Source: an uncultured Bacilli bacterium
GTDB lineage: Bacteria > Bacillota_I > Bacilli_A > RF39 > UBA660
Direction of reading: 5' to 3'
Assembly: GCA_944358815.1 (NCBI GenBank)
Contig: CALVRX010000026.1
Coordinates: 1-58,698, forward strand
Length of the DNA: 58,698 nt
Part shown: piece by piece, positions 976 to 54,444 of the stretch
Layout: each line of letters opens with the position of its first letter
Position numbering within the stretch: the stretch's first letter is position 1
Notes under the pieces: model-generated
Database searches by the model: none
What the model was told of the DNA's origin: nothing
What the model saw: only the letters and a program-made list of their open reading frames with translations
Made by a program: the position numbers and the translations under genes

Positions 976-2084
976 ATGTAAATGTCGATGAACAAGTTTA
1001 TCCTAATGGAGTATATACTTTTTCGCCAATTTTAGACAATACAAAAATGTTTGATGTTGAAAGAAAATCAAGAGTTGATGGAACAAAGGTTTCACTTTTC
1101 AATACGACACATGCGAATAATCAATTATGGTATTTAGAGTATGCTGGTGAAGGTTATTATAAAATAGGTAGTGCAATGAATCCAGAACTGGTTTTAACTA
1201 ATTTAAATAATGGTTTAGTAATTAGTAAATATAGTGGTAGTAATAATCAATTATGGAGACTGAAGAATTTAGGTAATCAAACGATTTCTATTATTTCTAA
1301 AGCAAATGAACTTTATTTATCTTTAGAAGGTGGACAGGCTAATAATAATACGAATATTGTTCTTACTGATGGCAATAATACTGATGTCCAAAAGTTTTTG
1401 ATGAATAGTTATACTGAAGAAAAGGTATATAATGGAATAGATGTTTCATATTATCAAAAAGATATTAATTGGCAATTAGTATCACAATCTGGAGTAGATT
1501 TTGTCATTATTAGAGCTGGATATGGCAGTGATTGGACTGATCAAGATGATAAAAAGTTTTTAGAGTATGTAGCTGGATGTGAGAAGTATAATATTCCTTA
1601 TGGTTTGTATTTATATTCTTATGCTAGTAATATCGATAATGGTAATAAGAGTGCACAGTCTGAAGCAAGACATATGCTTAGATTAATCGATGAGATTAAG
1701 AAACATGATTATTCACCTAATTTAGGTACAAAAGTGTTTATCGATATGGAAGATAATAGTGTGATTAATGCTGGTAAAGAAATGTTAACTAATGTTTCTG
1801 ATACATTTTGCTCTATTATTGAACAAAATGGTTATAGTTGCGGAGTGTATGCAAATAAGACTTGGCTTACAAATAATTTAAATGCAGCGGAGCTTGCTCA
1901 AAAATATGAAATTTGGTTAGCTGAATGGTTACCTGTTGTAAGTCCAACATTTAGTTATGCTCAAACACAAAAACCTTCTTATAATTTAACGGATTATAAG
2001 TTTTGGCAATTTGCTTCTGATGGAGTGGTTAGTGGTATTAGTGTAGCAGTTGATTTAGATTTAGGATATGATATTTTTGAATAA
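3..2084 (+). CDS. Muramidase with at least three ricin-type (beta-trefoil, CBM13-like) lectin modules and a C-terminal GH25 lysozyme domain; 5' end lies outside the window
   Basis: The reading frame is open from nt 3 (NIQVFTARTTVNQKFKF...), so the ORF-track Met at 132 is internal. Repeated QKW, GDGYY and NVQLF motifs are typical of ricin B repeats. The C-terminus GIDVSYYQKDINW..DFVIIRAGYG..GLYLYSYA fits the GH25 signature. Confidence 0.85.
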   Translation, partial: NIQVFTARTTVNQKFKFESVIKEKPVKTIEDGTYVIKSALNDNMVLDVANKSTADGANVQLFNYTGAENQKWNVKYLGDGYYSITSFMDNNKSLDVLCASTLAGANVQLFTYKGGDNQKWIIKDAGDGYYYIVAKNSGLQLDVYKGSPVNGTNIQVFTARTTVNQKFKFEQVVEEKPVKTIEDGTYVIKSALNDNMVLDVAYKSTADGANVQLFNYTGSNNQKWNVKYLGDGYYSITTAMSDNMSLDVLFASTMAGANVQIFTYKGGDNQKWIIKDAGDGYYYIVAKNSGLQLDVYKGAPVNGTNIQVFTARTTVNQKFKFVPTDVNVDEQVYPNGVYTFSPILDNTKMFDVERKSRVDGTKVSLFNTTHANNQLWYLEYAGEGYYKIGSAMNPELVLTNLNNGLVISKYSGSNNQLWRLKNLGNQTISIISKANELYLSLEGGQANNNTNIVLTDGNNTDVQKFLMNSYTEEKVYNGIDVSYYQKDINWQLVSQSGVDFVIIRAGYGSDWTDQDDKKFLEYVAGCEKYNIPYGLYLYSYASNIDNGNKSAQSEARHMLRLIDEIKKHDYSPNLGTKVFIDMEDNSVINAGKEMLTNVSDTFCSIIEQNGYSCGVYANKTWLTNNLNAAELAQKYEIWLAEWLPVVSPTFSYAQTQKPSYNLTDYKFWQFASDGVVSGISVAVDLDLGYDIFE

Positions 2085-2106
2085 AGGTCTTTGGACCTTT
2101 TTTTTG
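2084..2106 (+). terminator. Rho-independent terminator after the GH25 gene
   Basis: Stem aaggtc/gacctt with loop tttg, followed by a T-run (tttttttgtgttttttt). Confidence 0.7.
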
Positions 2107-2115
2107 TGTTTTTTT

Positions 2116-2144
2116 TTGACTTTTAGACGGTATTATTATATAAT
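2116..2144 (+). promoter_or_regulatory. SigA-type promoter of the Kdo operon
   Basis: TTGACT (2116-2121), a 17-nt spacer, then TATAAT (2139-2144), about 18 nt upstream of the first start codon. Confidence 0.6.
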
Positions 2145-2161
2145 GAAAATGTTGTTAGAAT

Positions 2162-2659
2162 ATGGTGATAGATGTGAAAATTAAATTGGTTTTGACGGAT
2201 ATAGATGGCTGTTTAACAGATAATTCAGTGTTTTATATGCCTGATGGTAATAAAATTAAAAAATTTAATATGGCTGATGGTATGGGTGTGAAATTATTAC
2301 AAAAAAATGATATTTTAGTGGGAGTAATTTCTGGCGATAATAGTTTAGCATCTAAAAAAAGAATGGAAGATTTAGGTGTTAATTATATTTATGTTGGTGT
2401 TAAAGATAAGAAAGAGATTTTAGATAAAATTGCCAATGATTTAGATATTTCTTATGAGGAAATAGCTTATATGGGTGATGACGTGCAGGATTTGTGTGTT
2501 TTAAAAGAAGTTGGTTTAGCTTTTGCGCCAAATAATGCTTTAGATGAAGTGAAAAAATGTGTGAAAGTGGTAACTAAAAAAGCTGGAGGATTGGGGGCTT
2601 TTAGAGAGTTTGCCGAATATGTGATAGATTATAATAAAAAAATAGAGAGTGAGGATTAA
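2162..2659 (+). CDS. kdsC: 3-deoxy-D-manno-octulosonate 8-phosphate phosphatase (HAD superfamily, KdsC type)
   Basis: LTDIDGCLTD (HAD motif I), FNMADGMG and YMGDDVQDL..VGLAFAP..GGLGAFREF are collinear with E. coli KdsC. The start may instead be the GTG at 2174. Confidence 0.8.
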   Translation: MVIDVKIKLVLTDIDGCLTDNSVFYMPDGNKIKKFNMADGMGVKLLQKNDILVGVISGDNSLASKKRMEDLGVNYIYVGVKDKKEILDKIANDLDISYEEIAYMGDDVQDLCVLKEVGLAFAPNNALDEVKKCVKVVTKKAGGLGAFREFAEYVIDYNKKIESED

Positions 2660-2660
2660 T

Positions 2661-3353
2661 ATGAAAGTTGTAGCTTTTGTACCAATTAAAATGAATAGTA
2701 GTAGATTACCACATAAAAATTTATTAGATTTGAATGGAAAACCTTTATGTTATTATTTGCCTAATAGTTTATTAAAGGTTAAAGGTATTGATGAAATTTA
2801 TGTTTACTGTAGTAACGAAAGTATTGTAGATTATTTACCTAAAGGGGTTAAATTTTTGAAACGTGATTCATATCTAGATGGTGATTTAGTAAAAGGACAG
2901 GAAATTTATGAGAGTTTTATTAATGAGGTGGATGCAGATGTGTATATACTTGCTCATGCAACAGCTCCTTTTATAAAATCAGAAACTATTGAAAATGCTT
3001 TGAATAAGGTGATTGATGATGATTATGATTCAGCGCTTTCGGTGAAGAGGATACAGACTTTTACTTGGTATCAGGGAAAACCTTTAAATTATAGTTTAGA
3101 TAATATTCCAAGAACACAGGATATTGAACCGGTGTTTTATGAGACTAGTGCTTTCTTTATTTTTAAAAAAGAAGTATTTACAGAAATGGGTAAACGCCGA
3201 ATAGGGGATAGACCATATTTTCAGGAAGTCGATGATATTGAGGCAGTGGATATAGATTATCCGGAGGATTTTGCTTTTGCTGAGGTAATTGCAAAAAGTA
3301 AAGAAAGCAGTGACATAGAGTTTAAAATTTGGAAACCTGAAAGTCATAAATAA
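2661..3353 (+). CDS. kdsB: CMP-ulosonic acid synthetase (CTP_transf_3 family, KdsB/NeuA-like cytidylyltransferase); probable CMP-Kdo synthetase by operon context
   Basis: The N-terminus [25 protein letters not shown] matches the cytidylyltransferase P-loop-like motif. ATG 2661 is preceded by a GAGGA RBS. The gene sits between kdsC and kdsA. Confidence 0.65.
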
Positions 3354-3367
3354 GAAAGGATTTGTGG

Positions 3368-3994
3368 ATGATAAGACGTATTATTAGGAAAATCAAGCGA
3401 ATTTTGAAAAAAGATAAGAGATTTACTGGCTGTCAGATTGATATGCCATCTAGAGTAGATGATGGAGCTATTTTAAAAGGATGTAAAATTGCTAGAGACT
3501 GTGATATTAGAAGTGGCGTGGAAATATTAGAGCATTCTTATATTAATTGTGGTAGCAATGTTATGTCGGGTAAAATAGGAAAATATTGTTCGATTGGTTA
3601 TAATGTAGATATAGGAATGTTTGAACATCCTATAACGATGGTAAGTACGAGTAAAGAAATATATGAAAATACTGGTGATTGGAAGGAAATCTTTGATCCG
3701 CCAATTATTGGAAATGATGTATGGATTGGTAGTAAAGTTACTATATTACAAGGTGTTAAAGTTGGTAATGGAGCTATCATAGCTGCTGGAGCGGTAGTTA
3801 CTAAGGATGTTCCAGCTTATGCGATTGTCGGAGGAGTTCCTGCTAGAGTTATTAAATATCGTTTTGATAAGGATATTAGAGATAAATTAGAGGAAACCAA
3901 GTGGTGGGATAAAGATGATAAGTGGATAGATGAACATCGGGCTTTATTTAAAAATCCCCAAAAATTTTTAAAAATGATTGATAAGGAAAATTAG
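3368..3994 (+). CDS. Hexapeptide-repeat (left-handed beta-helix) O-acetyltransferase, CatB/Vat-like
   Basis: [53 protein letters not shown] shows hexapeptide repeats plus the typical C-terminal tail. ATG 3368 follows an AAAGGA RBS. Confidence 0.75.
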
Positions 3995-4004
3995 GAGGTA
4001 TAGA

Positions 4005-4796
4005 ATGGAAAATAATAAAAAAATTTTATTAATCGCAGGTCCTTGTGTGATTGAAAATGAGGAAAATGTGTTATTGATTGCTAAGAAAATGAAGGAAATT
4101 ACTGATAAGCTAAATATTGATTATTATTTTAAGGCTTCTTTTGATAAGGCAAATAGGACGTCTATAGATTCTTATAGGGGTCCTGGCATTGAAGAAGGGC
4201 TTAGGATTTTAAAGAAGGTAAAAGATGAAGTTGGAGTGAAAATTGCTACAGATATTCATGAACCTTGGCAAGCGGCTAAAGTAGCTGAGGTTGCCGATAT
4301 TATTCAAATTCCGGCATTTTTGTGCCGTCAGACTGATTTATTAGTAGCAGCAGCTAAAACTGGGAAGTTAATTAATGTGAAAAAAGCTCAATTTTTAGCT
4401 CCTTGGGATATGGGCAATGTAGTTAAAAAATTAGAAGATAGTGGAAATAAAAATATTATGCTTTGTGAAAGAGGTTCTTGTTTTGGCTATAATAATTTAG
4501 TGGTTGATATGACAGGAATGCTCGAAATGAAAAAATTTGGTTATCCAGTTGTGTTTGATGCAACTCATAGTGTTCAAAAACCAGGTGGCAAAGGTAATGC
4601 TACTGGAGGAAATAGGGAATATGCTAAATATTTAGCTAAAGCGGCAGCAGCGATTGGTGTTAGGGCTTTCTTTATGGAAGTTCATCCTGATCCTGATAAG
4701 GCTTTGTCCGATGGACCTAATTCGATTAAACTTGATGATGTAGAGCAATTACTTGAGACAATTATAAAAATAAGTGATGTTGTAAAGGAGCGATAG
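4005..4796 (+). CDS. kdsA: 3-deoxy-8-phosphooctulonate (Kdo8P) synthase, Cys-type (metal-dependent class)
   Basis: [49 protein letters not shown] and [14 protein letters not shown] are near-collinear with E. coli KdsA. AGPCVIE carries Cys where non-metallo enzymes have Asn. An AGGAGG RBS lies before ATG 4005. Confidence 0.9.
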
Positions 4797-4797
4797 T

Positions 4798-5778
4798 ATG
4801 AAAAATAACACTATTATAGAAGATGGTAAAAAGGTTTTTAATATTGAATTACAAGCGGTTGAAAAAGTTAGAGATACTTTAGATGAACATTTTGAAGAAA
4901 TAGCAAAGGTTTTAATAAACTGTAAAGGTAAAGTTATATTTACTGGCATGGGTAAATCCGGACATATTGCCAGAAAATTAGCAGCTACTTTTGCTAGTTT
5001 AGGTACGCCTTCATTTTGCTTGCACCCAGCTGAGGCTTTACATGGTGATTTAGGAATGGTTTCTAAAGACGATGTGGTTGTGGCTATTAGCTTTAGTGGT
5101 GAAAGTGAGGAAATTGTTAGAATATTACCTAATATAAAGAAAATTCAAGCTACGCTTATTGGTATATCTGGTAATCCTAATTCGACATTGATTAAGCAAA
5201 GTGATATTTATTATGTATTGCCACCGTTTGAAGAGGCTTGTTATATGAAATTAGCACCGACTTCTAGTACGACAGCGGTATTAGTATTAGGTGATGCTTT
5301 AGCAGTTGTTTGTGCCAAACAAAAAGCATTTACGAAAAAAGATTTTGCTTTGTTCCATCCAGCAGGGGCTTTAGGTAAGAGTTTAATAATTACAGTTGGC
5401 GATTTGATGAGTACTGGTAAGCGCAATTCTGTGGTAAATATCAATTCAAGTTTTGAAGAGGCACTTAATGAAATGTGTAAGACTACTTTAGGAATGGTGA
5501 GTGTTGTCGATGATAATAATAAACTTATTGGTATATTTACAGATGGCGATTTAAGAAGAAAACTAGCGGAAAAAGTCGATATTTATTCGATGAAACTCGA
5601 TGATATTATAACTAAAACACCGTTAACAGTTGGTAAGGATATGCTGGCAGTTGAGGCATTAAGACTAATGGTTAGAGACGAGAAGAGAGTGTCTGTAGCG
5701 CCAGTTGTGGATGAAAAGGGAATATTGCTCGGAGCTATTAAAGCAGAAGATATTATTGATAGTGGTATAGTATTATAA
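4798..5778 (+). CDS. kdsD: Arabinose-5-phosphate isomerase (SIS domain plus tandem CBS domains; KdsD/KpsF/GutQ family)
   Basis: GMGKSGHIARKLAATFASLGTPSFCLHPAEALHGDLG is the SIS signature. A C-terminal CBS pair is present (VVDDNNKLIGIFTDGDLRR). Confidence 0.85.
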   Translation: MKNNTIIEDGKKVFNIELQAVEKVRDTLDEHFEEIAKVLINCKGKVIFTGMGKSGHIARKLAATFASLGTPSFCLHPAEALHGDLGMVSKDDVVVAISFSGESEEIVRILPNIKKIQATLIGISGNPNSTLIKQSDIYYVLPPFEEACYMKLAPTSSTTAVLVLGDALAVVCAKQKAFTKKDFALFHPAGALGKSLIITVGDLMSTGKRNSVVNINSSFEEALNEMCKTTLGMVSVVDDNNKLIGIFTDGDLRRKLAEKVDIYSMKLDDIITKTPLTVGKDMLAVEALRLMVRDEKRVSVAPVVDEKGILLGAIKAEDIIDSGIVL

Positions 5779-5787
5779 TATTTGAAG

Positions 5788-5820
5788 AGGCTGGTTTAGT
5801 TGCCAGCCTACTTTTGATTT
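5788..5820 (+). terminator. Possible weak or attenuating terminator between kdsD and wzx
   Basis: Stem aggctgg/ccagcct with a short loop, followed by acttttgattt. Confidence 0.4.
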
Positions 5821-5842
5821 AATAGTTTGAAAGGAGAATACG

Positions 5843-7360
5843 ATGGAAAGTAGAGGTAGAGTTGCTTTTAAAAATATATCGGCTAATTTTATATTACAAT
5901 TAGTGGTTATTATTAGTGGATTCATAGTTCCCAAATTATTAATTACTAATTATGGCTCTGATTCGTATGGCTTGGTATCTTCTATTACACAATTTTTATC
6001 TTTAATTGCTTTATTAGAAGCAGGTATTGGACCAGTAATTAAAGCAAAATTATATAAATATATGGCAAAAAACGACAAGAATAAGATTTTGCTGATTTTA
6101 AAAGATGCGGATAGTTTTTTTAAACGTATTGGTTTAATATTTTTGATTTATATTATTATATTGTGTATTATATTTCCATATATTAATAACGAATTTGATT
6201 TTGCATTTACTACTGCAATGATTTTGGTAATTGCTATCGGTACTTTATTTGAGTATTTTTTTGGAATTGTATATAATATATATTTGCAAGCTGACAAGAA
6301 GTATTATGTGACATCTAATGTACAGATTGTATGTTATGTGTTGAATATTTTATTGGTAGTATTATTAATTAATTTAGATGCTTCAATTATTACTGTTAAA
6401 TTTGCTTCAACTTTGGCATTTTTGATTAGACCTTTGTTTCAGTCTTATTATGTACGAAAGAAGTTAAATATTCATTTTAAAGATGCTAAAGGTAGTTATA
6501 AAATTGAAAATAAATTTGATGGTTTATCACAACATATTGCGTATGTGATATATTCAAATACTGATGTTACTGTTTTAACTATTTTTGCTAATTTAACGAC
6601 CGTGGCGATTTATTCTGTATATAATATGGTCGCTAATTCTATTAGAAATGTTATAAGTTCTTTTATTAATGGTATGGATTCGATATTTGGTGATATGTTC
6701 GCCAGAGGCGAGAGAGAAAGTTTAAAAAGAAGTTTTGATATATATGAGTTTTTATATTATTTTGTGTCTACAGTTATTTTTTTGACAACGATGATTTTAA
6801 TTGTTCCGTTTGTAAAAATTTATACTAAAGGAATTACTGATGCTAATTATATTCAACCGTTATTTGCTTTTTTAATTATTTTATCTGGTTTAATTGCTTG
6901 TGCTAGAACTATTTATTCTACTTTAGTTTATTCCATTGGACATTTTAAACAAACTAATATGATTTCTTGGGTGGAAGCTATCACGAATATTTTGTTATCT
7001 ATAATTTTAGTTGTTAAATTAGGACTTGTAGGGGTGGCAATTGGAACTGCTGTATCTGCATTTATTAGATTAGTTTATTTTATGTTTTATTCTTCTAAGA
7101 ATGTATTGAATAGATCATTTAAATCTTGTTTAAAATGGTTATTTGTGCTTATTTTGGAAGTTGTTTTATGTTATTTATTTATAAATTCTAATTTTAATAT
7201 TATTACACCAACTAATTATTTGGAGTGGATTTTATATGCAGTAGTTGTTTTGTTAGGAGTTACTATAGTTACATTATTTATCAATATTATTTTTAATTTT
7301 AGTCAAGCAAAAGAAACTTTAGATTTTTTGAAAAAAAAGTTTGGAAAGGATAATTCATGA
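5843..7360 (+). CDS. wzx: Polysaccharide flippase, MOP/Wzx family
   Basis: 505 aa with 12 or more predicted hydrophobic helices, an N-terminal KN..ANF..Q pattern typical of Wzx, and a location inside a glycan locus. Confidence 0.7.
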   Translation: MESRGRVAFKNISANFILQLVVIISGFIVPKLLITNYGSDSYGLVSSITQFLSLIALLEAGIGPVIKAKLYKYMAKNDKNKILLILKDADSFFKRIGLIFLIYIIILCIIFPYINNEFDFAFTTAMILVIAIGTLFEYFFGIVYNIYLQADKKYYVTSNVQIVCYVLNILLVVLLINLDASIITVKFASTLAFLIRPLFQSYYVRKKLNIHFKDAKGSYKIENKFDGLSQHIAYVIYSNTDVTVLTIFANLTTVAIYSVYNMVANSIRNVISSFINGMDSIFGDMFARGERESLKRSFDIYEFLYYFVSTVIFLTTMILIVPFVKIYTKGITDANYIQPLFAFLIILSGLIACARTIYSTLVYSIGHFKQTNMISWVEAITNILLSIILVVKLGLVGVAIGTAVSAFIRLVYFMFYSSKNVLNRSFKSCLKWLFVLILEVVLCYLFINSNFNIITPTNYLEWILYAVVVLLGVTIVTLFINIIFNFSQAKETLDFLKKKFGKDNS

Positions 7361-8220
7361 CAAGATTAAAGGAAAAATTTTATTATTTAATTGGTCCGCA
7401 TAATACAAACCGTTTTAAACGTGTTAGAATATGTATGAATAGAAGTTTAACAAAATTATTAAAAAGAAATAGTAAGTTTCACAATATTCATGAAGGTAAA
7501 CGCTGTTTTATCTTAGGTAGTGGTCCTTCTATAAAAAATGTGGATTTTAAAAAATTAGCTAATGAATATACATTTACTGTTAATCATTTCGCACGGTTTG
7601 ATAATTTTGAAAAATTAAAGACAAATTATCATTTATTTGGCGATGAAAGAATATTTTATTCATCTTTAAATAATACAATTAATGAAGAATCGCTTGATTA
7701 TTTAAAAAAATTAAATGATTCATCAGATGAGATTCAATTTTTTGTGGTTTATAGTTCTAAAACTTTTTTCGATAAAATTGATATTTTAAAAGAATCAAAA
7801 ATTAATTATTTTTATAATGTGTTAGATTTTTATGATAATTATAATGAGAAATTTGATATGGCAACATCTATCCCATGGTTTCCTACATGTATAGATTATT
7901 GTATTGCTATAGCTATGTATATGGGATTTACTGAAATATATCTTTTAGGATGTGAATGTACAGGTTTTGCTAAATTATTATCTTCGGATAATACTCAGAC
8001 TTATGGTTATAAAGTTTCAAAAGCAGAAAATAAACGTCTTAAAGAGCAAATAAAGACTTATGGTGCAGCTGAAGAATTACAATTATGGGCAGATATTTTA
8101 AAGGATTATGATTATTTAGAAAAATATGCGAATAAACACAATGTGAAAATTGTTAATTGTACTGATGGTGGTATATTGGATTCTTTTGAAAGGAAATCTT
8201 TAGATGAGGTTTTAAGATAA
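7357..8220 (+). CDS. CstII/GT42-like (DUF115/MAF-fold) putative CMP-ulosonic acid glycosyltransferase
   Basis: CFILGSGPSIKNVDFKKLANEYTFTVNHF resembles the CstII N-terminus VIIAGNGPSLKEIDYSRLPNDFDVFRCNQF. CIDYCIAIAMYMGFTEIYLLGCE resembles SGVYMCAVAIALGYKEIYLSGID. The start overlaps the wzx stop by 4 nt. Confidence 0.5.
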   Translation: MTRLKEKFYYLIGPHNTNRFKRVRICMNRSLTKLLKRNSKFHNIHEGKRCFILGSGPSIKNVDFKKLANEYTFTVNHFARFDNFEKLKTNYHLFGDERIFYSSLNNTINEESLDYLKKLNDSSDEIQFFVVYSSKTFFDKIDILKESKINYFYNVLDFYDNYNEKFDMATSIPWFPTCIDYCIAIAMYMGFTEIYLLGCECTGFAKLLSSDNTQTYGYKVSKAENKRLKEQIKTYGAAEELQLWADILKDYDYLEKYANKHNVKIVNCTDGGILDSFERKSLDEVLR

Positions 8221-8233
8221 TTATAATGTGATT

Positions 8234-8269
8234 AAAAGTCTATTAAGTTATTTATTAATAGGCTTTTTT
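8234..8269 (+). terminator. Intra-locus terminator, followed by a TATAAT box at 8274-8279
   Basis: Stem aaaagtctattaa/ttaataggctttt (one G-U pair) followed by a T-run. The TATAAT lies 20 nt before ATG 8299. Confidence 0.5.
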
Positions 8270-8298
8270 CGTGTATAATGATAATAGGAGTTGGTAGA

Positions 8299-8784
8299 AT
8301 GAATAATACTAACAAAAAGAAGGCATTGTTTATTTCTAGTACCGGTGGTCATTTGAAAGAACTTTTACAATTAGAGTCTATTTTTAATAAATTTGATTAT
8401 AGAATTATTACGGAAAAAACTGGTAATAATGTGAATTTAAAAAAGAAGTATGGTAAAAAAATTAGTTTTTTGATTTATGGTACTAAAGATCATATGCTTA
8501 CATATCCTTTTAAATTACTTATAAACTGTTTTATTTCTTTGTTTCAGTTTATAAAGTTTAGACCTAAATATATTATAACAACTGGAACGCATACAGCTGG
8601 TCCAATGTGTTATATTGGAAAAATTTTTGGTAGTAAAATTATTTATATTGAGACTTTTGCTAATTCACAGACAAAAACAGTGGCAGGTAAATTAATTTAT
8701 CCGATTGCTGATTTGTTTATTGTGCAGTGGGAAAGTATGCTTAAACTTTATCCAAAAGCTAAATATTTTGGAGGTGTATTTTAG
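8299..8784 (+). CDS. Alg14-like membrane-anchoring subunit of a split GT28-type glycosyltransferase (PssD/Cps14F-like)
   Basis: FISSTGGHLKELLQL and TGTHTAGP are Alg14-family motifs. A TAGGAG RBS lies 8 nt before ATG 8299. The gene is immediately followed by the Alg13-like partner. Confidence 0.7.
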   Translation: MNNTNKKKALFISSTGGHLKELLQLESIFNKFDYRIITEKTGNNVNLKKKYGKKISFLIYGTKDHMLTYPFKLLINCFISLFQFIKFRPKYIITTGTHTAGPMCYIGKIFGSKIIYIETFANSQTKTVAGKLIYPIADLFIVQWESMLKLYPKAKYFGGVF

Positions 8785-9263
8785 TGATTTTTGTTACTTT
8801 AGGCACGCAAGATAAGCCTTTTAAAAGATTATTAGATGCTATTCAAAAACAGATTGATAATGGCAATATTAAAGATAAGGTGATAGTGCAGGCTGGATAT
8901 ACGAAATTTGAAAGTAAGGATATGGAAATATATGATTTAATTAATATGGATGAGTTTGATAAGTTAATTAAAGATTGCGATGTTTTAATTACTCATGGAG
9001 GAGTAGGAAATATATTGACTGGTTTGAAATATGGTAAAAAGATAATTGCGGCAGCGAGGCTTTCAGAATATGGTGAGCATACGAATGATCATCAATTGCA
9101 AATTATCGATAAATTTACAGACGAGGGATATATTTTAAAATTAGATGATTTTGATGAATTAGATAAGGTACTTACTAAGGCAAAGAAGTTTAAACCTAGA
9201 AAATATATAAGTAATACTAAAAATTTTTGCAAACATTTGTTGGCAGAAATAGAAAAATTATAA
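8784..9263 (+). CDS. Alg13-like catalytic subunit of a split GT28-type glycosyltransferase (Glyco_tran_28_C; PssE/Cps14G-like)
   Basis: IFVTLGTQDKPFKRLL, ITHGGVGNI and HTNDHQLQI are typical Alg13/MurG C-terminal-half motifs. The GTG start overlaps the upstream stop. Confidence 0.75.
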   Translation: MIFVTLGTQDKPFKRLLDAIQKQIDNGNIKDKVIVQAGYTKFESKDMEIYDLINMDEFDKLIKDCDVLITHGGVGNILTGLKYGKKIIAAARLSEYGEHTNDHQLQIIDKFTDEGYILKLDDFDELDKVLTKAKKFKPRKYISNTKNFCKHLLAEIEKL

Positions 9264-9273: not shown

Positions 9274-10293
9274 ATGGACAAGGTTAGTGTTATTGTGCCA
9301 ATTTATAATGGGGAGAGATATTTAAAAAGATGTATTGATTCTTTATTGAATCAAAGTTATAAAAATAATGAGTATATTTTAATTAATGATGGTTCTAGTG
9401 ATAATACTTTAAAAATTTTAAAGGAATATGCTTTAAAAGATACAAGGATTATAATTATCGATAAAAAAAATACAGGTGTTTCTGATTCGAGAAATATGGG
9501 TATTGAAAAGGCTACTGGTGATTATATTTGTTTTTGTGATTGTGATGATATGTATGAAGATAATTATATTGAAGTAATGCTTCATACAATTAAAGAAAAC
9601 AATGTTGCCTTAGTAAGATGTAATTTTCAGGTTATTGATAAAGATGGCAAGGTTACTGATAATGGTAAAAATGTTTTAACTAATAAAAGATTAACTAATA
9701 AAGCAATCATTAATGATATTATTCCTTATTGTTTAAGTGGAGAAATGCCATGTTTTGTATATTTACTAATGATTAAAAGAGATATACTTACAATGAGGTT
9801 TCCTAATGATATAGCGATGATGGAAGATGTGGTTTTTTATATTAATTTGCTTTTGAAAACGGATAGTATGTATATAATAAATGATAGTTTATATACGATT
9901 ATGTTTAATGATGAAGGGGCAACTAATAATGTCAAAAATTATAAGCGAAATATTAATAATGTTATTTTGGTAAATAAATATATTAAAAATATTTTGAATG
10001 AAAATAATTTGATGAATGATGAGAATATTTCTAAGTTAAATACTAATAATTTAAATTCAGTGGCAGATTTTATATTTAGGTATTATTTACATGAAGGGAA
10101 GCAAGCTATTAGTTTGTGTAAAAGTATTCGAACAAAGGATTTGTTAAACATTATTTATGAAACTAATTTATCATGTCTTTCTTTACCTAGAAGGTGGCTT
10201 TTAAAGTTAATTGAGAAAAAGCACTATGTGTTTTTGAGATTTTATTTTGGACTAAGAAAGATTGTATTTAAATTAAAACGTCATAATAATTGA
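9274..10293 (+). CDS. GT2 family glycosyltransferase
   Basis: VSVIVPIYNGERYLKRCIDSLLNQSY, INDGSSDNT and CDCDD (DxD) are present. Confidence 0.85.
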   Translation: MDKVSVIVPIYNGERYLKRCIDSLLNQSYKNNEYILINDGSSDNTLKILKEYALKDTRIIIIDKKNTGVSDSRNMGIEKATGDYICFCDCDDMYEDNYIEVMLHTIKENNVALVRCNFQVIDKDGKVTDNGKNVLTNKRLTNKAIINDIIPYCLSGEMPCFVYLLMIKRDILTMRFPNDIAMMEDVVFYINLLLKTDSMYIINDSLYTIMFNDEGATNNVKNYKRNINNVILVNKYIKNILNENNLMNDENISKLNTNNLNSVADFIFRYYLHEGKQAISLCKSIRTKDLLNIIYETNLSCLSLPRRWLLKLIEKKHYVFLRFYFGLRKIVFKLKRHNN

Positions 10294-10308
10294 TATGTGG
10301 GGGATAAT

Positions 10309-11163
10309 ATGATAACAGTTTTTACACCTAGTTATAATCGGGCAAATACATTGAAAGTTTTGTATGATTCTTTATTAAAACAAGGTAAGGCGAAGTTTGA
10401 ATGGTTGATTGTGGATGATGGTTCTAGCGATAATACTAAAGAATATATAGAATCATTGATAAGGGAGAAGAAAATTAAAATAAGTTATTTTTATAAACAA
10501 AATGGTGGGAAACAATCTGCTTATAATTTAGGACTTGAGAAGGCACAAGGAGATATTTTTTTGTGTGTTGATTCAGATGATATGTTAGCTAGTAACGCTC
10601 TTGAAAATATAGAGAAAGATTTTAAACAAATTAAAGCTAAGAATATAGCTGGTATTATGTATAATCAAGGTTATATTAGTGATAAAAGTCTTATTATTGG
10701 TACTAGATTCCCAAAAGACAATTTGGTAGATACTTATTATAATATTTATCATAAATTACATGTTACTGGTGATAAATTGATTGTTTTTAAAACTAATGTG
10801 GCCAGAAAATATTATTTTCCATTAATTGATGGTGAAAAATTTATTCCAGAGGCTTTAATTTATAATAGAATGTCTTTAGATTATATGTTTTTGTGTAAAA
10901 ATAAGGTAATGGCTTATAAAGATTATTTAGGTGATGGTTATTCCGCAAATTATTTTAATTTAGTTAAAAAAAATCCTAAAGGTAATGCTTTATATTATTT
11001 AGAACTTTATAATTTAGAACCTACTTTTTACAATGTTTATGGTTATTTATTGTTTTGTTTTTTAGCTAAGGAAAAATTTAAAAATATTATAAAGCATCCT
11101 AGTAAATTAAAAATTTTGTTATTATATATTCCTGTATATTTGATATTTTTAGTGAGGCGATAA
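10309..11163 (+). CDS. GT2 family glycosyltransferase
   Basis: ITVFTPSYNRANTL, VDDGSSDNT and VDSDD (DxD) are present. ATG 10309 is preferred over GTG 10297, which lies inside the GGGGGA RBS. Confidence 0.8.
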   Translation: MITVFTPSYNRANTLKVLYDSLLKQGKAKFEWLIVDDGSSDNTKEYIESLIREKKIKISYFYKQNGGKQSAYNLGLEKAQGDIFLCVDSDDMLASNALENIEKDFKQIKAKNIAGIMYNQGYISDKSLIIGTRFPKDNLVDTYYNIYHKLHVTGDKLIVFKTNVARKYYFPLIDGEKFIPEALIYNRMSLDYMFLCKNKVMAYKDYLGDGYSANYFNLVKKNPKGNALYYLELYNLEPTFYNVYGYLLFCFLAKEKFKNIIKHPSKLKILLLYIPVYLIFLVRR

Positions 11164-11164
11164 G

Positions 11165-12244
11165 ATGAAGAAAAAGTTGTTGATATTTGGTTATACATTA
11201 ACTATGGGAGGAGCTGAGAAGGCTTTAGTAGATATGATTCGTTATTTGGTGCCTTACTGCGATATTGATTTATATTTGTTAGAAAAAAAAGGAAGTTTAA
11301 TGAGTGATATTCCTAAAGAAGTTAAGGTATATCAAATGAAAAGGAATTTTTTTCAGTATGTTTTATTTAGGTTTATACCTTTGTATAGAAAACGCGTAAT
11401 AAATAAGATTGCAAATTCTAAAGATTATAAGTATGTTTTTGGCTATATGGAAGGTAGATGTGGGACTTGGGTAAGTGATATTAAAAAAAATATCAAGAAA
11501 TATGCCTGGATACATAATGATGTTTTTAAGTTTAATATTGGTATTAGTGATGCTGAGGTTAAAAAAAGTTATAATAACTTAGATAAGGTTATTTGTGTAT
11601 CTAAGGAAAGTAAAGAAAATTTTTGCCAGAAATATGGAATTTCTAGGGATAAAGTTTTAGTTATTTATAATTATATAAATGAAGGGGAAATTTTGAAAAA
11701 GGCTGAGGCTTTTAAAGTTAAGAATACGAAGACTACTTTTGTGAATGTGGCTAAAATGCGTGATCAAAAGAGGCAAGATAGATTGGTTATGGCAGCAAAA
11801 TATTTGAAAGAAAAAGGTTATGATTTTGAAATCCAATTAATAGGAGATGGTCCTAATCTTGAAAAAATAAAAGATATGGTATATAATTATAAACTAGGGG
11901 ATGTGGTAAAAATTTTAGGATTACAAACTAATCCTTATCCATATATAAAATGGGCAGATTATTTTGTGTTATCTAGTTATATGGAAGGATATGGAATTGT
12001 TATCAAAGAGGCTTTATTACTTAAGAAAAAAATAATTACCACTGATGTTGTAGGACCAAGAGAGATTTTAGAAAATGGGAAGTATGGCATTATTATACCC
12101 AATGAGGATGAGGCAGTTTCTTTGGCTTTAGAAGAAGTATTAAAAAATCCTCATAAATACGATTATTTAGAAGAAAATTTAAAAGAATATAAAGGGGATA
12201 ATGAAGAAATAAAGGAACAAATTTTAGAACTATTAGATTTATAA
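11165..12244 (+). CDS. GT4 (GT-B, Glycos_transf_1) glycosyltransferase
   Basis: GGAEKALVDM at the N-terminus. FVLSSYMEGYGIVIKEALLLKKKIITTDVVGPREIL is an EX7E-type motif. Confidence 0.8.
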   Translation: MKKKLLIFGYTLTMGGAEKALVDMIRYLVPYCDIDLYLLEKKGSLMSDIPKEVKVYQMKRNFFQYVLFRFIPLYRKRVINKIANSKDYKYVFGYMEGRCGTWVSDIKKNIKKYAWIHNDVFKFNIGISDAEVKKSYNNLDKVICVSKESKENFCQKYGISRDKVLVIYNYINEGEILKKAEAFKVKNTKTTFVNVAKMRDQKRQDRLVMAAKYLKEKGYDFEIQLIGDGPNLEKIKDMVYNYKLGDVVKILGLQTNPYPYIKWADYFVLSSYMEGYGIVIKEALLLKKKIITTDVVGPREILENGKYGIIIPNEDEAVSLALEEVLKNPHKYDYLEENLKEYKGDNEEIKEQILELLDL

Positions 12245-12256
12245 AGGAGAAGTACA

Positions 12257-14827: not shown

Positions 14828-14836
14828 GAGAAATAT

Positions 14837-16375
14837 ATGTTAAGTAGGGTGAGAAATGAACTTACAAGAAAAAGAATAATAATATTTTTCTTTTTTGCTT
14901 TATGTTTTATTCTTTTTCTTTTTGATTTAAATAGTAATAAGGTAGGTGTTAATTTATTATTTAGTTTATTTGCGTTTATAATTATTGGAGTGATTATTTT
15001 ATTAAATTATAAATTTAAAAAAGTTGATGATACTTCCTATTATAAGTTTTATGCTTTAGCAGTATTTATTTTAGGTTTTATTTTGATAGTTTTAACGCCT
15101 CCTTTTATGGGTAGCGATGAATATACGCATTTTTTAAGAGCTTATGAAATATCTGAAGGACATTTTATTTCTAAAGTGGATGAAAATGGTATTTTGGCTG
15201 TTATGCCTAGATCATTAAATAAAGCATATTCAGGGTATGACGATGAAAATAAATTTGATAAGAATATGACAATATCATACGATGAAATACCTTCTAGATT
15301 GAGTATTCCATTAGATAAAAGTAATACATTGAATTACTGTACATGTAATAGGACAAATTATATGGGAGCTACGGTGTATTCACCTTTTCAATATATACCC
15401 CATTTAGTGGGAATTGAAATAGGAAAAATTTTCACTTTGGGTCCAACATGGCTTGTTTATTTAGCGAGGATAGGTAATTTAATTGTTTTTGCGTTGCTTA
15501 CTATTATTGGAATTAAGTTACTACCTAAATTTAAACTTTTTGCAATGCTAGTATTGCTTAGTCCAGTAGTACTTTCTGGGGCGACAACCATTTCGGCAGA
15601 TGGACCAACTAATGCAGTAACGTTTTTGTTTATTGCATATATTGTTAATTTGATTTGCAATAAAAAAACGGTGAGATTAAAGGAAAAAATATTGTTATAT
15701 TTATTAGCTTTTACAATTGCTATGTGTAAGATTGTTTATTTTCCAATTTTGGCTTTGGTTTTTCTAATTCCTAAAGAGCAATTTAAGAGTGGCAAAGATA
15801 GTTTGATATTTAAAATTACTTTGATGCTTTTTGGCTTAATATTTAGCGTGGGCTGGTTTTTAACTGCTTCTTTATTTTTGAATTCGCAGTCTAGTACATC
15901 ACAGTTACAAATGAAATATGTGTTTGCACATCCTTTAAATTTTTTGTTTATCGTTATTAGAACATATCTTGATATTTTTAATGAAAATTTACTGAATATT
16001 TTCTTTGGTAATCAAATGTTTCATTGGTCATTAAAGGTTTATTCATTTTTCTCTTTAGCGTTTGTAGGGGTAGTTGTTTTATCTTTATTTACTAAAAAAG
16101 CGGATTTGAAAATAGCAAATAGGAGTAAAATTTTAATTATGTTTATGATTATAATGATTTTAGGTTTAATTGCCTCAGCTTTGTTTGTTCAACATAACCT
16201 TGGTGCTTCTAATCTTATTGGTGGTATTCAGGCTCGCTATTTGATTCCTTTATGTTTTTTAGTTCCTTTGTTTTTAAATATTAAAAAAGCATTTTTTAGT
16301 GAAAAGATGGTATTTATGTTATTTAGTTTTTTATATTTTCCAGCATTTTTAACGATTGTCGTAAGGTTTATTTAA
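14837..16375 (+). CDS. DUF2142-type polytopic membrane protein (GT-C-like glycosyltransferase candidate)
   Basis: PPFMGSDEYTHFLRAYEISEGHF in the first extracytoplasmic loop is the DUF2142 hallmark. There are 10 or more TM helices. Confidence 0.6.
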   Translation: MLSRVRNELTRKRIIIFFFFALCFILFLFDLNSNKVGVNLLFSLFAFIIIGVIILLNYKFKKVDDTSYYKFYALAVFILGFILIVLTPPFMGSDEYTHFLRAYEISEGHFISKVDENGILAVMPRSLNKAYSGYDDENKFDKNMTISYDEIPSRLSIPLDKSNTLNYCTCNRTNYMGATVYSPFQYIPHLVGIEIGKIFTLGPTWLVYLARIGNLIVFALLTIIGIKLLPKFKLFAMLVLLSPVVLSGATTISADGPTNAVTFLFIAYIVNLICNKKTVRLKEKILLYLLAFTIAMCKIVYFPILALVFLIPKEQFKSGKDSLIFKITLMLFGLIFSVGWFLTASLFLNSQSSTSQLQMKYVFAHPLNFLFIVIRTYLDIFNENLLNIFFGNQMFHWSLKVYSFFSLAFVGVVVLSLFTKKADLKIANRSKILIMFMIIMILGLIASALFVQHNLGASNLIGGIQARYLIPLCFLVPLFLNIKKAFFSEKMVFMLFSFLYFPAFLTIVVRFI

Positions 16376-16405
16376 TTGACTTAGGTAAAATGTTTGTTAT
16401 ATAAT
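16376..16405 (+). promoter_or_regulatory. Internal SigA-type promoter for the gtrB-like module
   Basis: TTGACT (16376-16381), an 18-nt spacer, then TATAAT (16400-16405). An AGGAG RBS sits at 16412-16416. Confidence 0.55.
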
Positions 16406-16427
16406 TTTTTTAGGAGTGAAAGTATTT

Positions 16428-17147
16428 ATGAAAAAGAAAATTTTAATTATAATTCCAGCTTATAATGAAGAGGCAAATATCGTAAAGACGGTTAATTCTA
16501 TTAAGAATTTTAAAAAGAAAAAATTGGATTATATTGTTATTAACGATGGTAGTACGGATAATACAAAAAAGGTAATGATGGAAAATAATATTGATTTTAT
16601 CGATTTACCATTTAATCTAGGAATTGGGGCGGCAGTTCAGACTGGATATAAATATGCTTTTTATAATGATTATGATATTGTGATTCAATTTGATGGTGAT
16701 GGTCAGCACGATATTAATTCGGTAGAAAAGTTAATAAAACCAGTTGCTGATGGAGAGGCTGATATGGCAATTGGATCTAGATATATCGATGATACCAGTT
16801 CATTTAAGTCGACTTTTAGCCGTAGAGTGGGTATTAAAGTTATTTCATCTTTAATTCATTTATTATCTAAGAAAAAGATTAAAGATGTAACTAGTGGATA
16901 TAGGGCAGTAAATAGGAAAATTATTGAGGTTTTTGCGAATAATTATCCTTATGATTTTCCGGAACCAATTACTAATTATGCTTTATTAAAAATGGGTTTT
17001 AAGGTAAAAGAAGTAGGGGCTAATATGTTTGAAAGAGAAGGCGGTATTTCTTCTATTCGAGCTTTAAAGTCAGCTTATTATATGTTTAATGTTTGTTTAT
17101 CTATTTTATTATTTAATCCCAAGAGGTTTAAAGGAGGGATAAAATGA
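16428..17147 (+). CDS. Polyprenyl-phosphate glycosyltransferase (GT2; GtrB/CsbB/DPM1-like)
   Basis: ILIIIPAYNEEANI, INDGSTDNT and QFDGDGQHD are present. The gene is followed by DUF2304 and GtrA genes, the usual context for this enzyme class. Confidence 0.8.
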   Translation: MKKKILIIIPAYNEEANIVKTVNSIKNFKKKKLDYIVINDGSTDNTKKVMMENNIDFIDLPFNLGIGAAVQTGYKYAFYNDYDIVIQFDGDGQHDINSVEKLIKPVADGEADMAIGSRYIDDTSSFKSTFSRRVGIKVISSLIHLLSKKKIKDVTSGYRAVNRKIIEVFANNYPYDFPEPITNYALLKMGFKVKEVGANMFEREGGISSIRALKSAYYMFNVCLSILLFNPKRFKGGIK

Positions 17148-17491
17148 TTTCTTTAAATTTAAAAATATTTTTACTAGTGGTGACATTATTTTATTTCTTT
17201 ATGGTATTTAAAGCTATTAAAAAAGGCACGATGCCGATAAAAAGTTCCGTTTTATGGCTTTTCTTTGGAATTTTAATGCTTTTGTTAATTGGTTTTCCTG
17301 AATTTTTAGTAAAAATTGCATCTTTAGTTGGTATTAAGACTATATCTAATTTACTTTTGTTTGGAGCGGTATTAGCACTTTTAGTCTTAGCATTTGATTT
17401 ATATAAGATTAATAATATTGAAAAAAGGAAGAATGTAACTTTAGCACAAGAAATTGGAATTATTAAGCATGAACTTAATAAAAAGAAATAG
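17144..17491 (+). CDS. Small DUF2304-like membrane protein
   Basis: 115 aa with 3-4 TM helices and a charged C-terminal tail (LAQEIGIIKHELNKKK). The start overlaps the gtrB-like stop by 4 nt, the canonical partner position. Confidence 0.5.
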   Translation: MISLNLKIFLLVVTLFYFFMVFKAIKKGTMPIKSSVLWLFFGILMLLLIGFPEFLVKIASLVGIKTISNLLLFGAVLALLVLAFDLYKINNIEKRKNVTLAQEIGIIKHELNKKK

Positions 17492-17864
17492 AGTTTTTTT
17501 AACTTATGTGCTTTCAGCTGGGTCTTCCTTTGTTATAGATTTGTTATTTTTTACTTTATTTAATACTATATTTAGTAAGTTTTTGGGATATGAATCAATT
17601 ATTATATCTACTATATTGGCTAGAATTTTGTCATCTTTGTATAATTTTATTATGAATTCAAAGTTTGTCTTTAAAAAATATAGTAAAAAGATGTTAGTGC
17701 AATATTATATATTAGTTATTGTACAGATGCTTCTTTCGTCTATTTTAGTATATGTGATTAATAGGTTTTTATTGGATACTTTTGCGACGATTATTAAGTT
17801 TTTTGTGGATATTATGCTATTTATAATTAATTATTTTATTCAAAAGTTATTTATTTTTAAGTGA
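17469..17864 (+). CDS. GtrA-family membrane protein (putative polyprenyl-phosphate-sugar flippase)
   Basis: About 130 aa with 4 TM helices. The FLTYVLSAGSSFVIDLLFF..ARILSSLYNFIMNSKFVFK pattern is typical of GtrA-like proteins. The start is either ATG 17469 or TTG 17454. Confidence 0.7.
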   Translation: MNLIKRNRVFLTYVLSAGSSFVIDLLFFTLFNTIFSKFLGYESIIISTILARILSSLYNFIMNSKFVFKKYSKKMLVQYYILVIVQMLLSSILVYVINRFLLDTFATIIKFFVDIMLFIINYFIQKLFIFK

Positions 17865-17877
17865 GGAGTGGTTATAG

Positions 17878-19602: not shown

Positions 19603-19612
19603 TGGTGATGTT

Positions 19613-22431: not shown

Positions 22432-22458
22432 AAAAGGCTATAGTATTTATAGCCTTTT
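22432..22458. terminator. Bidirectional terminator between the glycan locus and spoIVB
   Basis: Perfect 11-bp stem aaaaggctata/tatagcctttt with loop gtatt. The A- and T-runs are built into the stem arms. Confidence 0.8.
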
Positions 22459-46177: not shown

Positions 46178-46190
46178 TATATTACCTCCT

Positions 46191-48117: not shown

Positions 48118-48139
48118 AAAAAGTCCTTTTTTAGGACTT
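48114..48139 (-). terminator. Terminator after TIR paralog 1
   Basis: On the minus strand, aagtcct-aaaaa-aggactt is followed by tttttttcac. It overlaps the stop codon. Confidence 0.65.
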
Positions 48140-52132: not shown

Positions 52133-52168
52133 TTTATATCACCTTGTATCAAGAATATTATATCATAT

Positions 52169-54434: not shown

Positions 54435-54444
54435 AATATCACCT

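Follow-up and report, generated by a model that had tools for sequence, protein, structure and literature searches.

Organization of the kds operon

The 58,698-nucleotide (nt) contig CALVRX010000026.1, hereafter the window, carries near its 5′ end a compact operon predicted to make cytidine monophosphate-activated 3-deoxy-D-manno-octulosonate (CMP-Kdo). Five co-directional genes encode a KdsC-type phosphatase, a cytidylyltransferase (CT), a hexapeptide-repeat acetyltransferase, KdsA and KdsD, and are separated by gaps of 1, 14, 10 and 1 nt (Table 1). The window is AT-rich (~23–34% GC), and the TTGACT-17-TATAAT promoter in front of kdsC is the sole 11/12 consensus match in 6.6 kb (1800–8400). 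It sits inside a 77-nt gap, downstream of the terminator-like hairpin that closes the preceding lysozyme/lectin gene. At the other end, none of 200 shuffled sequences was as stable as the hairpin 3′ of kdsD. The segment 2116–5809 is a self-contained transcription unit comprising promoter, kdsC, CT, O-acetyltransferase, kdsA, kdsD and hairpin. The tight packing and the promoter reported in a preliminary description of this DNA agree with the open reading frame (ORF) coordinates and with the promoter scan.

For CT, the acetyltransferase and kdsA, the mechanical ORF starts (2649, 3362 and 3978) were moved to ATG codons, giving proteins of 230, 208 and 263 amino acids (aa). The chosen starts are those of the gene calls on identical metagenome contigs, and kdsA read from ATG 4005 finds an exact protein match, whereas the longer version from TTG 3978 finds none.

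In sibling metagenome contigs (99.4% nucleotide identity) an IS30-like transposase with HTH_38 and rve domains adjoins the operon. This insertion sequence (IS) lies between the T-run of the upstream terminator and the TTGACT −35 box (window 2100–2116) and is flanked by duplicated 'TTTTGTGTTTTTTTT'; in the sibling locus L001 it occupies 6235–7305, with the IS gene at 6367–7209 on the minus strand. The insertion is polymorphic among strains and the siblings that carry it keep both promoter hexamers; it could change expression of the operon.

KdsA, KdsD, KdsC and the acetyltransferase

KdsA scores 413.8 bits on the curated profile TIGR01362 (cut-off 314) and 430.4 bits on NF003543 (cut-off 242), and its alignment with Aquifex aeolicus KDO8PS (1fwn, 315 bits) is full-length. 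The Cys of its AGPCVIE motif, read in the preliminary description as the mark of a metal-dependent enzyme, falls on Cys11 of 1fwn (AGPCAIE; AGPNAIE in the C11N mutant 2nx3), and the metal-ligand positions His, Glu and Asp are matched by the motifs DATHSVQ, FMEVHP and ALSDG. In the A. aeolicus enzyme the ligands are Cys11, His185, Glu222 and Asp233, with Cys and not Asn in the first place; since all four are conserved, the metal-dependent type of KdsA is confirmed.

KdsD reaches 300.4 bits on TIGR00393 (cut-off 203.7), with a SIS domain (98.5 bits) and two CBS stretches. It stays below the KdsD and GutQ equivalog cut-offs (505 and 481) and is therefore placed at subfamily level. KdsC scores 150.4 bits on TIGR01670 (cut-off 106.95) and 125 bits on the KdsC equivalog model NF007019, below its cut-off of 208; on the KDN-9-P phosphatase model NF058599 it obtains 160.6 bits, also under the cut-off (180). 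Judged by its profile scores, KdsC, like the CT, looks nearest to enzymes of the Kdn (deaminated neuraminic acid) pathway, though the synthase is unambiguously a Kdo-8-phosphate synthase. The three kds genes first named from the sequence thus all pass the cut-offs of TIGR01670, TIGR01362 and TIGR00393, and the statement that the gene set suffices to lead from ribulose-5-phosphate to CMP-Kdo is supported, with a CT from another branch than was supposed (see below).

The acetyltransferase (VatD 83.5 bits, CatB 81 bits) belongs to the hexapeptide-repeat left-handed beta-helix class, whose characterised members close to it (Vat, CatB, Mac, LacA, NeuO) are all O-acetyltransferases. With ~106 bits against 300 it attains no resistance-gene equivalog cut-off and therefore does not count as a resistance enzyme of the Vat or CatB kind. 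It had been noted as an insertion in the operon, and the comparison bears this out: the gene is found within the operon in the related locus L010 only, and in the close loci L011–L014 the CT adjoins kdsA.

The cytidylyltransferase belongs to the CMP-sialic-acid-synthetase branch

The CT was initially taken to be KdsB-like. It is a clear member of PF02348 (67.9 bits, cut-off 22.6), but on five KdsB models (TIGR00466, NF003948, NF003950, NF003952, NF009905) it scores at most 48 bits, over the N-terminal region only, against cut-offs of 155–281. This shortfall is common to all 34 members of the CT family that were examined. On the PseF equivalog TIGR03584 the window CT obtains 60.8 bits (cut-off 205.7), and the 34 members all stay below this cut-off too (best E among them 5.9e-21). 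When a profile of the CT family was compared with the PDB, the best match was the CMP-Kdn synthetase PpNeuA of Prymnesium parvum (9t4z, 76.8 bits, full length), followed by mouse CMAS (48.6 bits, full length) and by KpsU, matched in its N-terminal part only. The predicted structure gives the same order: with an AlphaFold model of mean predicted local distance difference test (pLDDT) 86.6, Foldseek ranked PpNeuA (template modelling (TM) score 0.75) ahead of CMAS enzymes, KpsU/KdsB and PseF.

A neighbour-joining tree is in agreement with these searches. The window CT groups with 31 homologues in a single clade, which joins PpNeuA and mouse CMAS, apart from the 34 KdsB-type proteins of sister loci, which join E. 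coli KdsB (reference sequence checked against 1vh1). By sequence and predicted fold, the CT is thus placed in the CMP-sialic-acid-synthetase (NeuA/CMAS) clade and is not a KdsB orthologue. The preliminary description had itself suggested such a phylogeny, holding that firm clustering with NeuA or PseF together with a lack of detectable Kdo would speak against a Kdo operon; the tree gives the first half of this. Annotation pipelines name the family, which has more than 4,500 database members, 'acylneuraminate cytidylyltransferase'.

The genomic setting of this family was surveyed in the best 80 GTDB loci selected by KdsA (63–92% identity to the KdsA of the window). The gene directly 5′ of kdsA is a CT of this family in 31 loci, a true KdsB in 34 and a distant CT in 3; the 12 loci with neither are mostly in diderm-labelled genomes or on truncated contigs. 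Within 10 kb of the CT-carrying loci no KdsB was found. The alternation of CT and KdsB in the same slot, with no second KdsB nearby, points to a non-orthologous displacement of KdsB. Moreover, three CT-family members picked independently of KdsA all have KdsA and KdsD downstream (3/3).

A stand-alone DUF115 protein is a candidate Kdo transferase

Past the operon, the start of a gene for a DUF115/MptE-like protein overlaps the end of a flippase gene, and glycosyltransferase (GT) genes of the glycan locus follow. The protein is a single PF01973 domain (39.9 bits, gathering score 34.6). A direct sequence search of the PDB gave no match at E up to 10, and predicted structure and profile comparison were therefore used. 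The top PDB match of its AlphaFold model (pLDDT 90.5) is Cst-II, a sialyltransferase that depends on CMP-sialic acid (1ro8, E = 9.5e-6, probability 1.00), and the DUF115 family shares with Cst-II, whose reference sequence was verified, an N-terminal GNGPS-K-D-L CMP-binding motif (hhalign 97.6%). Of the 68 loci that have a CT or KdsB, 33 also contain a DUF115 gene no more than 6.5 kb from kdsA; the 12 remaining loci contain none there. The place directly 5′ of the CT or KdsB gene is a frequent one, and as many as three paralogues per locus occur in Bacillus and Neobacillus, those of Bacillus around kdsBADC. Among three DUF115 homologues sampled independently, two are beside a CTP_transf_3 cytidylyltransferase and the third among nonulosonate genes of the pseudaminic/legionaminic acid (Pse/Leg) type. 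Full-length Maf proteins, which contain DUF115, can transfer Kdo from CMP-Kdo to flagellin in E. coli (bioRxiv 10.1101/2020.06.03.131540). Sequence, model and context together suggest that the stand-alone protein is most probably a Kdo transferase using CMP-Kdo; this candidate was absent from the preliminary description.

Kdo might instead be moved by one of the GT4, GT2 or Wzy_C-GT4 proteins of the locus, the DUF115 protein acting on another sugar or in a pterin-kinase-like role. Some bacterial sialyltransferases are indeed GT4 enzymes (bioRxiv 10.1101/2020.06.03.131540), and several observations weigh against our assignment: the TM-scores to Cst-II are low (0.42/0.47), the hhalign match spans only 37 columns, the HPPK enzyme MptE is also among the top fold matches, and roughly every second kds locus lacks a DUF115 gene within 6.5 kb, some such loci carrying KpsC/S-like proteins instead. 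Set against this are the association with kds genes just described, lost where the CT/KdsB neighbour is missing, the paralogues around the Bacillus kdsBADC genes, the cytidylyltransferase or Pse/Leg-type neighbours of independently sampled homologues, the CMP-binding motif common with Cst-II and a gene context free of folate or pterin genes. We consider this alternative unlikely.

A second alternative, somewhat less likely again, concerns the acceptor: the Kdo oligosaccharide could be placed on a protein (S-layer, surface protein or flagellin), either by the Wzy_C-GT4 protein acting as an O-oligosaccharyltransferase or by a Maf-like action of DUF115 on Ser/Thr. Wzy_C/O-antigen-ligase-like domains are known from bacterial O-oligosaccharyltransferases. 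The Maf reaction on flagellin in E. coli, which takes place on Ser/Thr, is a further precedent (bioRxiv 10.1101/2020.06.03.131540). However, a flagellin gene was found neither in the window nor, within 10 kb of kdsA, in any of the 80 loci, and the DUF115 gene is embedded between a flippase and glycan GTs. Maf proteins are larger and multi-domain, whereas the protein of the window is a 287-aa catalytic core only. A bare catalytic core with no flagellin nearby makes a glycan acceptor more likely than a protein acceptor. An interpretation of the sister kds/DUF115 loci as flagellin glycosylation islands was rejected on the same absence of flagellin genes.

Other gene arrangements were observed beside kds and DUF115 genes. 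In L094 (3350–10268) a 553-aa KpsC/KpsS-like protein (a faint Capsule_synth match) is encoded directly 5′ of CT-KdsA-KdsD-KdsC, and two RgpF rhamnan genes follow; this protein is an alternative candidate Kdo transferase for some Gram-positive kds loci. L090 (8–7429), a widespread Lachnospiraceae locus whose CT is indexed in 293 blocks of the collection, has a 724-aa fusion of a TagF-like glycerophosphotransferase with DUF115 and a TagD-like cytidylyltransferase beside CT-KdsA-KdsD, which suggests a teichoic-acid-like polymer with Kdo and glycerol phosphate. Finally, L100 (9366–12644) and L071 (14176–17276) contain, beside DUF115, an HMGL-like aldolase (531–535 aa), a CTP_transf_3 protein and a PfkB kinase or HAD phosphatase. 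These sets may represent an undescribed pathway to a CMP-activated keto-acid sugar.

Substrate of the cytidylyltransferase

In PpNeuA, a gatekeeper arginine, Arg196, selects Kdn, with its C5 hydroxyl, over N-acetylneuraminic acid (Neu5Ac): it blocks the C5 N-acetyl group and hydrogen-bonds O5, and the R196L substitution reverses the preference; PseF has Ile at this position (PMC12934254). With an 18-residue offset between the PpNeuA chain and the numbering of the paper, Arg196 aligns with the second Arg of the KRRIG motif in the window CT; mouse CMAS has Leu. The Arg is invariant in the CT family (31/31 in the tree alignment), and the hydrophobic gatekeeper (Leu/Ile) of Neu5Ac- and Pse-specific enzymes was not found in it, which speaks against an N-acylated substrate. 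Kdo and Kdn both bear a C5 hydroxyl. In the MAFFT alignment used for the tree, KdsB-type proteins also have Arg in the gatekeeper column (EQLR motif), but the families align poorly there and this was not relied on. With a genuine Kdo-8-phosphate synthase and an arabinose-5-phosphate isomerase in the same operon, the eight-carbon Kdo is the expected substrate. Sequence and gene order make the CT most likely a CMP-Kdo synthetase that has taken the place of KdsB and is mislabelled NeuA by annotation pipelines.

The rival reading, that the CT acts on a nonulosonic acid (Kdn, Neu, Pse or Leg) whose synthesis is encoded elsewhere in the genome and that the pathway ends at free Kdo or relies on another KdsB, draws on the clustering with CMAS, on the annotation as acylneuraminate cytidylyltransferase and on the gatekeeper itself, a Kdn-type residue as compatible with Kdn as with Kdo; that the CT reaches no curated equivalog cut-off likewise weighs against our assignment. 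Yet kdsA-kdsD directly follow the CT in all 31 loci and in the three sampled independently, NeuB is never adjacent in either set, the same slot is shared alternately with true KdsB, and CT loci have no KdsB of their own within 10 kb. In the window, Pfam scans of ORFs ≥120 aa as far as position 51509 (five ORFs at 51518–58578 lie outside this range) detected no NeuB-type synthase. Activation of a nonulosonic acid is thus improbable, and we retain CMP-Kdo synthesis.

An ulosonic-acid cassette is exchanged in a related locus

The related organism carrying L098 (on a 966-kb contig) has the same glycan locus, with amino-acid identities to the window of 73% for Wzx, 82% for Alg14, 84% for Alg13, 80% for GT2b, 86% for GT4 and 86% for Wzy_C-GT4, and it includes a DUF115 homologue (61%). 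In place of the kds genes, L098 carries at 970–2990 a short, 287-aa NeuB-type synthase, which misses the cut-offs for NeuB and PseI, and a 387-aa fusion of a cytidylyltransferase with a C0-HAD phosphatase. This cassette suggests a Kdn/Neu-9-phosphate-type route and an ulosonic acid that varies in a serotype-like manner.

Among the collinear genes of the window and L098, DUF115 has diverged most, as expected of an enzyme that would recognise the donor sugar. Against such a reading, L010 keeps the kds genes and differs in the downstream GTs, yet its DUF115 has also diverged (52%). Divergence alone is therefore no proof of donor specificity, and the acceptor matters too.

The host is most consistent with a monoderm member of the Bacilli

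Both sporulation genes pointed out in the preliminary description, spoIVB and spoIIM, are present in the window, and its statement that lipopolysaccharide (LPS) genes are lacking also holds in the scanned part, where no lpx, waa, lpt or bam gene was found. The window spans 58.7 kb, and LPS genes could still lie elsewhere in the genome, a point that counts against the model. Proteins identical to those of the window were found in metagenome assemblies only. The nearest named relatives of its MnmA (82–83% identity) are from 'Bacilli bacterium' metagenome-assembled genomes (MAGs), the closest kds locus (L010, KdsA 92%) is also labelled 'Bacilli bacterium', and a sibling contig has a PASTA kinase upstream. 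Placement in the class Bacilli argues against LPS, and the host appears to be an uncultured, low-GC, sporulation-gene-carrying gut member of the Bacilli, a monoderm lineage. An origin of the contig in a diderm Firmicute (Negativicutes, Halanaerobiales or Limnochordia), with the operon feeding ordinary LPS, is very improbable: SpoIVB and SpoIIM also occur in spore-forming Negativicutes and only 58.7 kb of the genome is visible, but the Bacilli labels of the relatives, the complete absence of Negativicutes and Halanaerobiales labels among the 80 related loci, the lack of lpx, waaA, lpt and bam in the scanned part, the setting within a Wzx/GT locus beside a GH25 lysozyme, the PASTA kinase of the sibling and the sharing of the module with bona fide monoderms (Bacillus, Paenibacillus, Lachnospiraceae) all speak otherwise.

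The surrounding glycan locus

The Kdo operon opens a surface-glycan locus, as had been surmised: a Wzx-type flippase, GTs and a Wzy_C-GT4 protein are encoded downstream (Table 1). The PF01943 score of the flippase is under the gathering threshold and its assignment is therefore weak. Neither PF05159 (KpsC/KpsS) nor KpsMT had matches in the glycan locus.

Table 1. Features of the kds operon and of the neighbouring genes, in window positions
Feature	Position	Strand	Remarks
Terminator-like hairpin, 5′ edge of the kds unit	2083..2100	+	7-bp stem then T-run; closes upstream GH25-lysozyme/ricin-lectin gene
Sigma-70/SigA-type promoter, TTGACT-17-TATAAT	2116..2144	+	
kdsC-type C0-HAD phosphatase (Kdo-8-phosphate phosphatase)	2162..2659	+	TIGR01670
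Cytidylyltransferase (CT), CMAS/NeuA clade, predicted CMP-Kdo synthetase	2661..3353	+	Family placement, gatekeeper Arg, gene context
XAT-class hexapeptide-repeat acetyltransferase, predicted O-acetyltransferase	3368..3994	+	Lineage-specific insertion
kdsA, metal-dependent Kdo-8-phosphate synthase	4005..4796	+	TIGR01362; ligands conserved
kdsD/kpsF arabinose-5-phosphate isomerase (SIS + two CBS domains)	4798..5778	+	TIGR00393
Terminator-like hairpin 3′ of kdsD	5788..5809	+	−17.7 kcal/mol, z = −4.1
Wzx-like MOP-family flippase, 505 aa	5843..7360	+	PF01943, 21.8 bits; orthologues in L010 and L098
Stand-alone DUF115/MptE-like protein, 287 aa, candidate Kdo transferase	7357..8220	+	PF01973; Cst-II-like fold
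Alg14-like and Alg13-like two-part glycosyltransferase	8278..8784, 8784..9263	+	
Two GT2 and one GT4 glycosyltransferases	9274..10293, 10297..11163, 11165..12244	+	
O-antigen-ligase/Wzy_C-like membrane domain fused to GT4, 856 aa	12257..14827	+	Candidate polymerase, ligase or O-oligosaccharyltransferase
DUF2142, GT2 (GtrB-like), GtrA, 574-aa protein without annotation, DUF6020, Acyl_transf_3	14837..22430	+	
SpoIVB	22457–23449	−	
SpoIIM	24667–25296		

In L001 and L006, the GT2, GT4, Wzy_C-GT4 and DUF2142 genes (equivalent to window 9274–16375) are broken into short ORFs, whereas the window and L003 have them whole; the fragmentation could reflect assembly indels or real pseudogenisation in some strains. 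Gtr-like glycan-modification parts occur at 14837–22430, with a GT2 at 16416–17147, and at 26444–26857, and include two GtrA-family proteins. Further away, at 45029–49975 on the minus strand, tandem genes encode paralogous proteins of 614 and 615 aa, each with a TIR_2 and a C-terminal SH3_3 domain, beside an SPFH/Band-7 protein with zinc ribbons. PADLOC gave only a weak PDC-S66 match on them (24.7 bits); the pair could be a defence system or a cell-wall-associated TIR system.

Proposed pathway

In the pathway that we propose, KdsD would convert ribulose-5-phosphate to arabinose-5-phosphate, which the metal-dependent KdsA would condense with phosphoenolpyruvate to Kdo-8-phosphate. KdsC would strip off the phosphate and the CMAS-type CT would then form CMP-Kdo. 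The most probable user of CMP-Kdo is the DUF115/Cst-II-like protein, which would attach Kdo to a lipid-linked oligosaccharide assembled by the Alg14/13-like, GT2 and GT4 enzymes, to be flipped and polymerised or ligated afterwards; the XAT-class acetyltransferase would probably O-acetylate Kdo or the Kdo-bearing glycan. What is observed comprises the identities of the genes, their placement in families, the synteny statistics, the likeness in fold and the cassette swap; we infer the substrate of the CT, the activity of DUF115, the target of acetylation and the final acceptor. For the model as a whole, in which the operon makes CMP-Kdo through a CMAS-type CT and DUF115 transfers Kdo onto a surface polysaccharide of a monoderm Bacilli host, we estimate a probability of about 0.6. 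Two negative results count against it: no initiating phosphoglycosyltransferase was recognised in the window, and chemical proof of Kdo in a glycan from a Gram-positive bacterium did not emerge from our literature search.

Spread among Bacillota and significance

The preliminary description implied that a Kdo operon is a rarity in a Gram-positive bacterium. This view is overstated: dozens of monoderm Bacillota species carry close KdsA homologues in kds operons. Of the best 80 KdsA-matched loci, 66 are labelled Bacillota, 12 diderm and 2 neither, and the cultured carriers include Bacillus, Neobacillus, Paenibacillus, Longirhabdus, Butyrivibrio, Eubacterium, Petrocella and Lachnospiraceae isolates; L071, from Bacillus coreaensis, is a polysaccharide locus of the ABC-transporter type. 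A kdsABCD island is known in Bacillus coahuilensis m2-6 (PMC4744853) and a kdsABCD cluster in Hendrickia, the two being the only kds cases in the Bacillota survey of a 2026 paper (PMC13249872). The module is far commoner in Bacillota than that survey states. Four loci from MAGs binned as Bacteroidales, Elusimicrobiaceae or Sphaerochaetaceae (L017, L028, L055, L057) also have a Firmicute-type CT-KdsA-KdsD module, with KdsA 72–80% identical to that of the window; this reflects either horizontal transfer to diderms or mis-binning of the MAGs.

While kds operons in Bacillota were known, if little appreciated, the present one is new in combining an activating enzyme of CMAS origin with DUF115 as candidate transferase and with the exchange of Kdo and nonulosonate cassettes. 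In the literature we found no description of a CMAS-type (non-KdsB) CMP-Kdo synthetase or of a native linkage between DUF115 and kds genes; what the search brought up was limited to the genome notes on B. coahuilensis and Hendrickia and the work on Maf promiscuity. A wider proposal, which we put forward tentatively and at slightly less than even odds, is that monoderm Bacillota possess a widespread and mostly overlooked Kdo-glycan system of their own, in which an Arg-gated, CMAS-derived CT has displaced KdsB in about half of the Firmicute kds operons, native DUF115/GT42-like enzymes transfer Kdo, and related strains swap Kdo and nonulosonate cassettes while the rest of the surface glycan is conserved.

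Kdo is regarded as a hallmark of Gram-negative LPS and capsules. The reading of metagenome pathways and Kdo-azide labelling both use it as a Gram-negative marker, and innate lectins, intelectin-1 among them, have it as a ligand. If the wider proposal is true, many gut commensals (Lachnospiraceae, Roseburia, Butyrivibrio, Erysipelotrichaceae) display Kdo, metagenomic 'LPS biosynthesis' signals from kds genes are partly Gram-positive, and the use of Kdo as a Gram-negative marker would need revision should such glycans be common on gut Gram-positives. A large family is probably mis-annotated, its 'acylneuraminate cytidylyltransferase' proteins being likely CMP-Kdo synthetases. The gatekeeper Arg offers a one-residue specificity hypothesis, and the DUF115 proteins would make a candidate new family of Kdo transferases of possible use in glyco-engineering. 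Cultured carriers open to chemistry include Neobacillus niacini, Bacillus coreaensis GXL0075, Paenibacillus vini J42TS3, Eubacterium oxidoreducens DSM 3217, Butyrivibrio sp. INlla16, Lachnospiraceae bacterium AC2031 and Petrocella sp. FN5.

Comparison with known systems

The closest parallels are the B. coahuilensis and Hendrickia loci, where a complete Kdo gene set is likewise found in a monoderm member of the Bacillota amid GT and membrane-protein genes, with insertion sequences near, as in sibling contigs of the window. They have a canonical KdsB, in contrast to the CMAS-derived CT and the DUF115 candidate transferase of the window, and a KpsC-like gene, of a kind without matches in the glycan locus of the window, forms part of the B. 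coahuilensis island. The papers on them see rare, horizontally acquired oddities, whereas our survey finds dozens of Bacillota species.

The Gram-negative CMP-Kdo pathway, which serves LPS (WaaA) or group 2 capsules (KpsF, KpsU, KpsC, KpsS), has the same four chemical steps, and group 2 capsule loci also encode the isomerase and the CMP-Kdo synthetase within the polysaccharide locus. It differs in that the scanned part of the window has no KdsB/KpsU orthologue, WaaA, KpsC/S, KpsMT or lipid A genes, in that the host is a monoderm, and in export and assembly genes of the Wzx/Wzy_C type. CMP-Kdn synthetases (PpNeuA and that of the Bacteroides thetaiotaomicron Kdn pathway) share several features with the window: PpNeuA is the nearest solved structure by profile and fold, the gatekeeper Arg is conserved, and the KdsC-type phosphatase scores high on the KDN-9-P phosphatase model. 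PpNeuA has, however, only ~25% identity to the window CT, whose partner is a Kdo-8-phosphate synthase and not a NeuB-type Kdn-9-phosphate synthase.

With Maf, the window DUF115 protein has in common the PF01973 core and with Cst-II (GT42) the predicted fold and the GNGPS motif, although the catalytic His188 of Cst-II falls outside the aligned region. GkMaf and CbMaf accept CMP-Kdo as donor (bioRxiv 10.1101/2020.06.03.131540), a promiscuous activity in E. coli and not their native function. Unlike Maf, the DUF115 protein is a stand-alone core encoded between flippase and GT genes in flagellin-free surroundings. The Pse/Leg transferases of Tannerella forsythia were considered as a precedent for DUF115 and dropped, the paper giving them as TagB/GT-B-like (PMC5420450). 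The swapping of Pse and Leg in the T. forsythia O-glycan is nevertheless comparable with what is seen in L098, since in both a conserved glycan locus carries alternative ulosonic-acid cassettes in relatives (PMC5420450); between the window and L098, though, an eight-carbon would be exchanged for a nine-carbon ulosonic acid, in a Gram-positive host.

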